From NCBI GenBank assembly GCA_964106645.2, contig OZ067045.1: a stretch of 64,000 nucleotides of DNA, one strand, 5' to 3'. Position 1 is the first letter of the stretch. Every line of letters begins with the position of its first letter. The notes beneath the pieces were generated by a model, which saw nothing but the letters and a program-made list of their open reading frames with translations, was not told where the DNA came from and made no database searches. This document shows positions 3,548 through 38,840 of the stretch, piece after piece. The position numbers and the translations under genes are program-made. Source of the DNA: Podarcis pityusensis (taxonomy: Eukaryota).

Positions 3548-3756
3548 CAGTGGTACCTCGGGTTAAGTACTTAATTCGTTCTGGAGGTCCGTTCTTAACC
3601 TGAAGCACCACTTTAGCTAATGGAGCCTCCTGCTGCTGCCGCGCTGCCAGAACATGATTTCTGTTCTCATCCTGAAGCAAAGTTCTTAACCTGAGGCACT
3701 ATTTCTGGGTTAGCTGAGTCTGTAACCTGAAGCATATGTAACCTGAGGTACCACTG
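3548..3756 (+). mobile_element. Tc1/mariner (pogo/Tigger-like) MITE, family A
   Basis: TIRs CAGTGGTACCTC(G/A)GGTTA with TA on both sides; closely similar copies at 32145, 61004 and 23588. Confidence 0.9.
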
Positions 3757-34874: not shown

Positions 34875-36101
34875 AAAATTATTGTTGGATTCTAATTTGT
34901 GTGCATTCGGCAAATGTTTGAATAATTTAAAAATAAGACACTGGATCCTTTAAGAATGGATGCAGGGTTTCACTATATTTTTATTTCAAGATTCATTCAA
35001 TAAATATGCAGTCAGAAGATACCTTTAAAAGAGAGGTAAAAATCGTAAAACTGGATTTATGCAGAGTGAAGGACTGAAAAGGAAAAGATGCTGAAGTATT
35101 ATGAATGCATACATCTTTAATGATGGATCAAGTATGTGTAAATAAGATTCATACCTTGAAGAGGCTGGAGGACAGTGAGTTTTGAATGAAATTAAAGCAT
35201 TATTGATCTGTTACATGGTTTGCCTTGCAGTTTGGAAAAATTTCTCCACTGACACCTACCCCAGATTTCTTGCATCTGCTGCTGGAGTACAGTGGTGCCC
35301 CGCAAGACGAATGCCTCGCAAGATGAAAAGCTCGCTAGACGAAAGGGTTTTGCGTTTTTTGAGCTCCTTCGCAAGACGAATTTCACTATGGACTTGCTTC
35401 GCAAGACGAAAACGTCTTGCAAGTTTGTTTCCTTTTTCTTAACACCGTTAATACAGTTGTGACTTGACTTCGAGGAGCAACTCATAGAACGCAACTCATA
35501 GAACGTGGTAGCCTTTTTTGAGGTTTTTTAAGACTTTGGTGATTTTTGAAGTTTTCCCAAAACTTCTTTTGCAGCCATTTGGTAAGTTAAACTTTTAAAA
35601 CTTTTTGGGGGGTTTTTGGATTTTGGGTTGGGGTGTTTGGAATTCAAGGACTTGGTGTTGGGGAGGGGTTTGCAAGAATCTGGAAGGTTGTGTGTGTTTC
35701 CCCCCCCCTGCATTTTTATGATTTTTTGTGACCATTGGGCCACTCTGCTGTTTTTTTTAAAAAAAATCTGGATTTGAATTTCTGTGTGGTGGGTAGCTGG
35801 GGGAACAGTTGAGGAGGGGTTTGCAAGAATCTGGAAGCTTGTGTGGTTTTTTCCTGCATTTTTATGATTTTCTGTGACCATTGGGCCACTCTGCTGTTTT
35901 TTAAAAAAAATTCTGGATTTGAATTTCTGTGTGGTGGGTGTGACTTTAAAGAGCACTTAATAAACTCTTGTTGTACCAAAGTTGGCTTTGTTTGGACTTT
36001 TTTTGACCATAGGAACGCATTAATTGAATTTCAATGCATTCCTATGGGATTTCGTGCTTCGCAAGACGAAAAATTCGCTAGACAAAAAAACTCGCGGAAC
36101 G

Positions 36102-38248
36102 GGACTTCCGGGGTGGCACCATCGGCAATGGCGGACTCCCTCTGATCTGGAGGGACTAGCTCCACGTGAAACGGGTCTTTTCCGCTACGGCAAAGCGGGG
36201 ACCCTTTCAAAAATCACAGGCGGATGAAGCCTGTGACCATGGGACTTGTCGGGCAACTTTAGCGCCCCCCCCCAACCCGCAAAAGAACCCACTAACGGGC
36301 TCCGGAGCGAAGAGGGGGAAGTGGCGCGGTGCTGAGAGTCAACTGCTTCTTCCGTGGAGCGAAGCTGCACAGCCGTTGCCGGAGAGCGCTGCCTTTTTCC
36401 TGGGACAATTTGGCTTCTAAAATAATCACCCGTGAGTACTTAAATTTCGGACAATTGGACTTTAAATAAGGACTTGCGAGCAGAAAGGAAAATTGGACTT
36501 AAAAGTTTACCTCAATTTGGCACTGAAACGGGAAGGTCTAAACAGGAAGTCAGCCTTCCGTTTCTTTGTAGATAGATTAAAGCAAAGACATGGCAAACTA
36601 GAGCTCAGAAAATCGCTTGTAAAAGATTAACTTTCATCATTTAAAATTGTTGAACCCCCCCTTCGGAAGCAGGAGAAGAGGGGGGATTTTTTCGGACTGT
36701 TTAAACCTGCAGAAGTGAGTGTAAAGTAAAGTAACTTTCCACCGTCCTGATCCTGGAGCGGGGTGTCAGGACTGACGTTTTTTGAAGCTCATTGACCAGA
36801 GACAAACGTTTTTGACAGATAGCTATAAGAAGAGAAACATTGATTCCCTTGTTCCCCTTCGCATTTTAAAGGAATAAATATTGACAAAATATCTGAAAAA
36901 GGAAACTTTGTTGTTAGACTTGTCTTTAAAAGAAAGAACAAATGGAAGTTTTCCCCCTAGAGGGAGACTGTGAAACTGTAACCAACTCCGGGGAGCTTGC
37001 AGCTGTTACAGATTACAATCGTGGGAATAGACTTCTGACCTTGCAGGACAATGTATTCAGAAGCTCTGTTGCATGCTTTCTGTAAAACAAATGCCCTACT
37101 GGAACAGCTACATGAGAAGACGGATTTGATGATTGATGCGATCAGAAATTTTGAACAGGCAGTGGGAAATTATATGGAGCCCACCCAGGAATTAAATCAG
37201 GAGTGTGCCCTGACAGAACAGATGAGCGAAGAGGATGTTACTGAATCTTGGGCGCCAGAGATGAAGGGAGCTGTGGCCCAGCAGGAACATGAGCTTTTGG
37301 ACTTGACAAATGAACTTGGAAAAAGCCAGATTTGGATAGATAAAGTTTGGTTTGGTTTGGAAATGGGGGGTTGGATAGACCTCCCTATGCAGGGATGTTT
37401 GGACCTTTCAAGTCTGGCAATGGGCCGTGAGATGTTTGGGGTTGTGGGGGCTCTTAATTTTGGAGGGATTTTGAAACATGTTCTTAAATACCACATGGAG
37501 TTTAGTGTGGACTATGGAAAAGGGGCTGATTTGTCGAGAAGGGTCAAAAACATTGTTAAGCTGGAGTTCCCACGAGTGAAAGGAGCAGGAGACAAAGGAA
37601 AATACAGTTATAAATTTGAAGAAGAGCTGCGGAAGGGACATGGAAGAGACTTAAGGGCCTCGGATACAAGGTTACCAGGTTAATGCGCTAGATCGATGGG
37701 ATAATAAGGACTGACAAAACGCGGGACCAGGAGGAAGGGACGCTGGATGAAGATTGTTTTTATTTCTTTTTTTTTACTACTAGGATTGTTTTATAAAATT
37801 GATGAATGTTAGAAAAATGTTGGAACGAAATTACTTGGCTTTAGCAAAAATGTTTAAAGAATTATGCAAGAATATTATGGTTATGAGAAGTTGGTAAAAA
37901 TAAGATTTAAGTTTTAAGCTTTAAGGTTCTTTATAGTAAGATAAGATTAAAATAGATTAAGGTATTGTAATGACAGAATATTATGAAATATGGAAAGGAT
38001 TTGCTGCGACAATTAACAACTAGGATACAAAAAAAGGGAGGAGGAGGAGGTCAAAGAAAGAAGGTAATGACAGTTGAGGATTTGAGAATGATGGATTTGT
38101 TTTTGAGTGTTTGTGGTGTATTTTTGTTTTTTGAATTTGTATTGTTTGATGTGGTTTGTTTTTTCTTTGTTTTTTCTTTCTCTTTTTCTGCTTTGTTCTC
38201 TTTTGTAATTCTAAAAAAATTCAAGAAATATCATTTAAAAAAGAAAAG
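36102..38248 (+). mobile_element. Non-autonomous L1-type (HAL1-like) retroelement, about 2.15 kb, apparently complete
   Basis: 17-bp TSD aaaaaactcgcggaacg (36085-36101 / 38249-38265); CpG-rich 5' end starting GGACTTCCGG; one long ORF; T-rich 3' region; A-rich tail; no RT or endonuclease coding capacity seen. Confidence 0.85.
37051..37683 (+). CDS. 210-aa ORF of the retroelement; possible degenerate L1 ORF1-like protein
   Basis: Longest ORF in the window; ATG with A at -3; N-half rich in E/Q/L and helical-looking; located where ORF1 would be. Homology not verified. Confidence 0.45.
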   Translation: MYSEALLHAFCKTNALLEQLHEKTDLMIDAIRNFEQAVGNYMEPTQELNQECALTEQMSEEDVTESWAPEMKGAVAQQEHELLDLTNELGKSQIWIDKVWFGLEMGGWIDLPMQGCLDLSSLAMGREMFGVVGALNFGGILKHVLKYHMEFSVDYGKGADLSRRVKNIVKLEFPRVKGAGDKGKYSYKFEEELRKGHGRDLRASDTRLPG

Positions 38249-38840
38249 AAAAAACTCGCGGAACGAATTAATTTCGTCTTGCGAGGCACCACTGTATGTA
38301 AATCCCACAAACCTTTACTACCCACCTGAGTTATTTGTTATTTGTTTTGTCTTTGGCTTATTTTTTATTATTTTACTTTTGTTCACACACATCCAGTTGA
38401 ATTAACTGTTCTTCTTGACATGCATTATTAAGTAATCTCAAAAAATGTGTTTATTTATTTACCTAGTGAATATGTCAAACATGCAGGAAGCTGAGTACGA
38501 AGGGAAAGGAGTGGAATTAGCCTCTTGGATTAGCAAACCATATCATGTTCACTCCATGTTATTTAAATGGCAGAGATAAACAAGCCTTGGGAGAATTGGA
38601 GAGAGACCTTAAAAGCACAGGTTGAGATGAGGTGTCACTTAGACTGAATTATGTTAGAAGGAAAGATTGGCCCATAAAATACCTTTAAGGATGAAAAGAA
38701 CCTTTCTTTTTTGTAAATAGATTTTCTTAAAGGATAACAAGTAGAATAGATTGTCAACTCATACATTTAGGCAGTCAGCCAGGTATAAAACAATTCTCTC
38801 AAGTAAGACAAAGTATAATCACAATGCAGCATCAATGCAA

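Follow-up and report, generated by a model that had tools for sequence, protein, structure and literature searches.

The retroelement at positions 36102–38248 of the window, a 64,000-nt stretch of contig OZ067045.1 from the lacertid lizard Podarcis pityusensis, belongs, as a young copy, to a clan of half-L1 elements. The clan comprises at least 18 mobile families, 1.8–2.2 kb in length and with target-site duplications (TSDs), whose single ORF derives from L1 ORF1. Purifying selection on this ORF is largely confined to two parts, the start of the coil at the N-terminus and the final 12 codons, a pattern that is inverted relative to L1 ORF1.

Structure of the element and its insertion site

The element, all features of which are given on the plus strand, is bounded by an exact 17-bp direct repeat (36085–36101 and 38249–38265), the long TSD reported in an earlier note on this stretch. 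The remaining parts described there, from the CpG-rich 5' end to the A-tail, were also recovered. The L1-type 5' end, a putative internal promoter (36102–36690), has 57% GC and a CpG observed/expected ratio of 0.83 over 350 bp, and resembles the 5' ends of autonomous L1s, with 75–85% identity over 250–590 bp. It contains ACTTCCGG (36104–36111) and ATGGCG (36128–36133), which are putative ETS-like and YY1-like words, respectively. A short upstream ORF (5–38 codons) begins at the ATG at 36128, and an ATG at position 27–28 with a short upstream ORF was found in 12 of 12 families and four of four L1s examined. The rest of the 949-nt leader (36691–37050) aligns to family 2 at ~67%, and frameshifting indels pile up freely in the leader.

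The 210-aa ORF (37051–37683) encodes a deleted derivative of L1 ORF1p, as judged by HHalign against L1 ORF1 of the same genome. Within it lie an amphipathic N-terminal helix equivalent to the start of the ORF1p coiled coil (37051–37176; from the AF2 model, omega and hydrophobic periodicity), the junction left by a deletion of ~40 codons from the RRM core (37462–37470), common to all families aligned, and a conserved 12-codon tail, RDLRASDTRLPG, with its stop codon (37645–37683; omega 0.20), where a weak hairpin is possible. Alignment to L106 shows that 37677–37810 is what remains, out of frame, of the final ~40 codons of L1 ORF2. The short peptide TDKTRDQEEGTLDED (37710–37754), which the note had likened from recall to the C-terminus of squamate L1 ORF2, does align to the last ORF2 codons of an L1 in the same genome; its frame differs from that of the 210-aa ORF and has no start codon. 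As a functional product this peptide was rejected, being startless, out of frame and decayed across the derived families. An L1-derived 3' UTR with a T-rich end follows (37811–38236; patchwise 68–79% identity to L1 3' UTRs), and then a short, interrupted A-tail (38237–38248). The poly(A) signal of the window copy is mutated to AAGAAA, compared with AATAAA in most sister copies.

The retroelement is inserted into a TA-flanked, MITE-like TIR element of ~840 bp without the insertion (35290–38294, no strand assigned), with terminal inverted repeats at 35290 and 38294 and an inner inverted repeat at 36054–71/38272–89. This host element contains internal tandem repeats of ~146–151 bp (35657–35939), and related CAGTGGT-type terminal repeats are present in the window at 3548, 23588, 32145 and 61004.

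Descent from L1

Full-length 6.1-kb L1s with an open 1245-aa ORF2 (endonuclease and reverse transcriptase) were recovered from the same genome. They supply the autonomous L1 with shared ends that the earlier note had called for, matching the element at the 5' end (75–85%) and in patches of the 3' UTR. HHalign comparison of the element ORF with L1 ORF1 of this genome (probability 99.6%, E 1.2e-24) identifies its product as an L1 ORF1p homologue, and a structure model of the same-genome L1 ORF1 matches the human ORF1p trimer. The proposal of a HAL1-like origin with a strongly remodelled ORF1 is upheld: the ends are those of L1, the ORF is derived from ORF1 with loss of the N-terminus and RRM core and partial deletion of the CTD, and there is no ORF2. 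Reverse transcriptase is absent, as had been noted, just the ~40-codon out-of-frame ORF2 relic being left.

Compared with L1, 3689–3706 nt (~3.7 kb) are missing, which is nearly the whole of ORF2. The clan protein is cut within the acidic tail of ORF1p, where the last ~40 ORF2 codons follow in a different frame. The conserved tail is made up of part of the ORF1 tail, in rearranged form, and the deletion junction, and the ORF closes with a Gly codon and a stop that come from the ORF2 relic. The RRM deletion and the junction, both held in common, point to a single origin of the clan. From the lack of ORF2, the ends common to L1 and the TSDs, we infer that the elements are copied in trans by L1 ORF2p. 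Splicing seems an unlikely cause of the RRM deletion, since the break lies upstream of a nearby GT donor and TGGA microhomology is seen by eye.

Several loci record further exchanges or associations with L1 sequence. In family c03 (L066–L071), the 3' end nests among autonomous L1s and the ORF is of the clan type, which suggests recapture of an L1 tail. Over 36102–36445 of the window, the 5' ends of a group formed by c01, c02, c10 and c13 are nearer to autonomous L1s than are those of other clan members; promoter recapture by this group is possible, but is not forced by supported branches. At L080:1534–3348, a clan ORF fragment is in frame with the part of L1 ORF2 from the RT to the C terminus, giving a 604-aa open frame that is probably the result of a template switch or nested insertion. 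L110:1–9801 contains a head-to-tail trio of L1 pieces from different subfamilies.

Copies of the element and related families

In a search of the 1.5-Gb genome, 40 of 5,599 candidates were scored, and 39 of these, self included, span the full element at 96–100% identity. There are thus 38 such copies besides that in the window, which rules out a single copy derived from a normal L1 by deletion after insertion. Distinct TSDs of their own, 9–21 nt long, are present at 28 of the 30 loci examined; at all 30 the ORF is 633 nt long with no indel, and at 25 it has no internal stop. The copies of the ORF diverge from the family majority by a mean of only 1.1%, and the intact frame within this family is therefore weak evidence by itself. 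Across families the ORF is also retained, with an open frame of 188–224 codons, and the possibility that it is not conserved among copies, which the note had left standing, can be dismissed. As in HAL1-like elements, families have been amplified as copies with their own TSD and A-tail. A Podarcis lilfordi hypothetical protein is a 98% match to one genome copy, and some clan members are annotated in that species as hypothetical host proteins.

Protein searches led to divergent relatives and through these to further families in the same genome. Clustering of 187 loci (duplicates included) gave 35 groups. Of these, 20 were kept, and 15 were set aside because they were broken or incomplete or were pieces of the kept families; c20 and c21, each a single-locus cluster among those set aside, end before the PG. 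Five lineages added later brought the set to 25, of which the 18 that are multi-copy were treated as mobile. Protein similarity was the route to most families, and one finder required a PG-stop ending. Mean pairwise protein identity in the clan is 35% outside the tail. A degenerate 28-nt pattern for the tail has 3,901 exact matches in the genome, compared with none for the reversed control, and the copy number of the clan is at least 3,901. The diagnostic codon of the window's family occurs in five of the first 100 matches listed for this pattern. A complete ORF of 185–235 codons was found at 13 of 30 loci taken from the same list, the other 17 having shorter frames or no start within this range. 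A Logan protein, at most ~60% identical to the matches from this genome, has the same C-terminal ending.

A copy of family 2 lies within a C2H2 zinc-finger array (L031:585–2744). Several rare lineages are concentrated in the distal parts of contigs C2, C4 and C10, with some duplicate pairs among them.

The remodelled ORF1 protein

The clan protein begins at an internal Met at the coil of ORF1p. In every family aligned ~40 RRM residues are absent, a deletion that takes out predicted strand 204–210 and helix 213–229 of L1 ORF1p, and part of the CTD is lost in most. The complete set of ORF1p domains (coiled coil, RRM and CTD) is therefore not found in the clan protein, and it is unlikely to be a working ORF1p because the RRM is destroyed. 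The N-terminal helix is the only confident part of the AF2 model of the element protein; pLDDT is below 50 for 163 of the 210 residues, and no folded domain was found. Coil length varies across families, and the identity of the residues is low. A model of the element protein in complex with two chains of L1 ORF1p, made without alignments, scored 0.14 and counts neither for nor against an interaction.

Searches of Pfam, PDB sequences and the ESM Atlas with the ORF gave no usable match. The PF02994 profile detected no ORF1 in the genome, and was silent in controls too. The PF13966 profile retrieved five unrelated LINE pieces, one of which contained part of an L1 ORF2 that was then used to query the genome further. 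P0006, a 1176-aa repeat protein, was rejected as a compositional match. Four presumed-RNA runs contain contig fragments across the element, a type of contig that cannot show transcription, strand or ends.

Selection and frame retention

A codon model of the 25 lineages puts omega at 0.42 (95% set 0.35–0.5) over the first 30 codons, 0.75 (0.7–0.8) over the middle of the ORF and 0.20 (0.12–0.30) over the last 12 codons. The dN/dS comparison among families proposed in the earlier note thus reveals two constrained ends. A subclade of 10 lineages gives corresponding values of 0.28, 0.89 and 0.20. The middle is close to neutral, because private mutations in 30 young copies, a post-insertion neutral control, themselves give an omega of 0.79–0.84. 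In the youngest derived families (L330–L340), this neutral spacer carries in-frame (DF)n dipeptide expansions. The inversion relative to L1 is seen in autonomous ORF1 (n=20), in which omega is 0.16 for the coil and 0.12 for the CTD, whereas the homologous tail has an omega of 0.69, indistinguishable from 1.

The open frame has been maintained on a 20-family tree for which ~154 substitutions creating a stop would be expected. Across 10 family pairs there are 39 indels in the ORF, of which 24 are multiples of three and the rest are net-compensated; equal lengths of leader in the same pairs contain 154, of which 24 are multiples of three.

The conserved tail

The last 12 residues have the consensus (R/K)(D/E)L(R/K)ASDxRxPG-stop. 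G(−15), D/E(−11), L(−10), A, S and D are near-fixed. A C-terminal PG is present in 25 of 25 lineages, 20 of which were selected for PG, and RxPG in 22 of 25; two mobile families without the Arg end in IDPG. The tail has the lowest dN among 32 windows, and identity by codon position is 0.92/0.92/0.69, dropping to 0.54 past the stop. Since the earlier finder required the PG-stop, a query lacking the tail was also run, and 50 of its 150 matches (the 30 best and 20 chosen for new length classes) were examined. The frame ends in the tail at 48 of these 50 loci, and the other two are broken copies with motif DNA directly downstream. This query also yielded three family groups new to the set.

Both protein-level and RNA-level signals are present in the tail region. 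The eight tail codons outside a potential hairpin keep an omega of 0.18 at a dS of 1.64, which argues for constraint on amino acids. The low dS at the four stem codons (0.35) and at codons −23 to −13 (0.46, with an omega of 0.79) argues that part of the constraint is on nucleotides.

Proposed mechanism and alternative explanations

We propose that half-L1s are copied by the reverse transcriptase of an intact L1 and that the gutted ORF1 protein may well serve as a ribosome-bound tether and not as an RNA chaperone, a reading held with slightly less than even confidence. Element RNA would be made from the L1-type promoter and translated. The tail would slow termination at the PG-stop, leaving the nascent coil outside the ribosome on the neutral spacer, still attached to its own mRNA. 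There the exposed coil could join assemblies of helper ORF1p, and the poly(A) tail would thereby be positioned to capture ORF2p despite the cis preference of L1 (cis preference and ORF1p domains are treated in sections of PMC10202459). Families that cheat could dispense with a product that works in trans; since every mobile family found keeps the ORF, both conserved ends appear to benefit the element in cis. More tentatively, the tail could be an arrest peptide that evolved at the deletion junction and converged on a 2A-like NPG-stop, the stalled coil hooking the RNA into L1 particles. Ribosomes are described as stalling on a 2A sequence in which a stop replaces the last Pro (PG-stop; passage in PMC3326317). 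Weighing against a tether are statements in parts of three papers: arrest peptides are not predictable from sequence (PMC10501990), translating mRNAs have been proposed to compete poorly for ORF2p (PMC12199147), and human ORF1p puncta show little mixing (PMC10202459).

The conserved tail might instead be a C-terminal degron that directs CRL2 ligases to an ORF1p unable to bind RNA, removing it before it can poison trimers of the helper protein; in a variant, bound helper ORF1p is carried to destruction, which loosens cis preference. This presupposes that clan elements depend on translation or on a coil with a short lifetime. The lineage counts for R-x-x-G and -PG endings (22 and 25 of 25) fit this reading, as do passages reporting that APPBP2 binds R-x-x-G, the extreme C-end included (PMC10614623), and that -PG ends are enriched in KLHDC10 substrates (PMC12035522). 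A degron would, however, account for four residues and leave the near-fixed positions upstream of them, from G(−15) to the ASD, unexplained; the Arg is lost in the two IDPG families, and cheaters would be expected to arise if the protein is released and works in trans. On balance, a degron seems unlikely. Selection might also act on an RNA hairpin, GCCU(C)GG..CCAGGY, that spans the last eight codons and is recognized by the L1 machinery; the frame would then be open only because translation up to the hairpin stabilizes the RNA. Pairing of the stem is possible in all 18 mobile families, TCG is invariant in all 18 despite its CpG, and third positions of the stem codons, with their low dS, have changed four times compared with ~10 expected from four-fold columns of the body. 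The changes compatible with pairing are one-sided in every case, though, and no two-sided compensatory change was seen in the 18 families; the fold is weak (−3.8 to −9.4 kcal/mol), is not of lowest energy in several families and has unremarkable z-scores in six of six tested. Non-stem tail codons conserve amino acids while their synonymous sites evolve at full speed, and selection on the coil is left unexplained, which makes a hairpin quite unlikely as the main explanation.

A released subunit that co-multimerizes with helper ORF1p and packages element RNA, as in a classical HAL1, with the tail as a protein-binding motif, would agree with selection on the coil and with the role proposed in a passage of PMC5786205 for non-autonomous LINEs that retain ORF1. 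It is improbable here, with the RRM core and N-terminal region gone and the CTD partly deleted; the near-neutral middle and the lack of a folded domain in the AF2 model make an RNA-gripping role unlikely. Finally, the ORF could be a drifting relic under no selection, with tail conservation due to ascertainment or recent recombination between families. The near-neutral middle, the protein-based searches and the apparent exchange of ends (the 3' end of c03 among L1s) are in line with drift. Against it stand the ~154 stop-creating substitutions expected, the depletion of frameshifting indels in the ORF and the recovery of the tail with a tail-less query; recombination, moreover, lowers dS and dN jointly and leaves their ratio. 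This reading is already largely refuted, and we give it very little weight.

Comparison with known elements

Mammalian HAL1, an ORF1-only L1 derivative with several origins according to passages in PMC5753468 and PMC8535693, is likewise non-autonomous, with both L1 ends, one ORF1-derived gene, no ORF2 and several families (PMC5753468 and PMC5786205, in part). The clan differs in its lacertid host, in an ORF1p that lacks the N-terminus and RRM core and has a drifting middle, in a new junction-made tail of 12 residues as the most conserved part, and in the coexistence of at least 18 mobile families. By comparison with published descriptions of HAL1, the element is a HAL1-like variant set apart by its incomplete ORF1p. 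HeT-A and Ag-Sponge also encode one ORF1-type protein, proposed to multimerize with that of a helper, but belong to the Jockey and CR1 clades, and the passage of PMC5786205 that describes them mentions neither a gutted core nor a conserved terminal peptide.

The PG ending is common to the tail and StopGo/2A peptides, and RDLKASDVRNPG of a derived subclade comes near a class with (R/K)DLTx followed by (D/G)(V/I)ExNPG (described in part of PMC12846837). The clan tail differs in having no Glu, one residue fewer between DV and NPG, and a stop in place of Pro; Asn occurs in one subclade only, and the origin is the L1 ORF1 tail. Membership of the 2A group was rejected, the core (D/G/C/N)(V/I)ExNPGP being found in none of the 25 lineages. 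With the Gly C-degrons of CRL2-APPBP2 and KLHDC10, the tail has the R-x-x-G and -PG ends in common (passages of PMC10614623 and PMC12035522), but its conservation reaches 11–15 residues upstream. XBP1u, in which a nascent targeting segment and a C-terminal arrest peptide carry their own mRNA to a destination (section of PMC10501990), is likened to the clan by proposed logic; it differs in that no homology is claimed and stalling in the clan is hypothetical. Alu, for which a model of ribosome association is outlined in part of PMC12199147, is a parallel to the proposed tether.

Among the papers listed in literature searches, titles and abstract openings mention no lacertid HAL1 and no arrest peptide of a non-autonomous L1, although an earlier description is possible. 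A term search of Boissinot and Sookdeo (2016; PMC5381506) found neither HAL1 nor non-autonomous.

The clan amounts to a natural dissection of how a protein-coding non-autonomous element overcomes the cis preference of L1: evolution has removed the RNA-binding core and let the middle drift, and has kept the frame, the start of the coil and the 12-residue tail. Were the tail a degron, the clan would be a case of a transposon restraining its own protein through the C-degron pathway of its host. Were it to stall ribosomes, it would add an arrest peptide to those of vertebrates and open a new route of hijacking, and the tether, if true, would be a protein-based counterpart of the ribosome hijacking of Alu, present in a single genome in dozens of natural versions.
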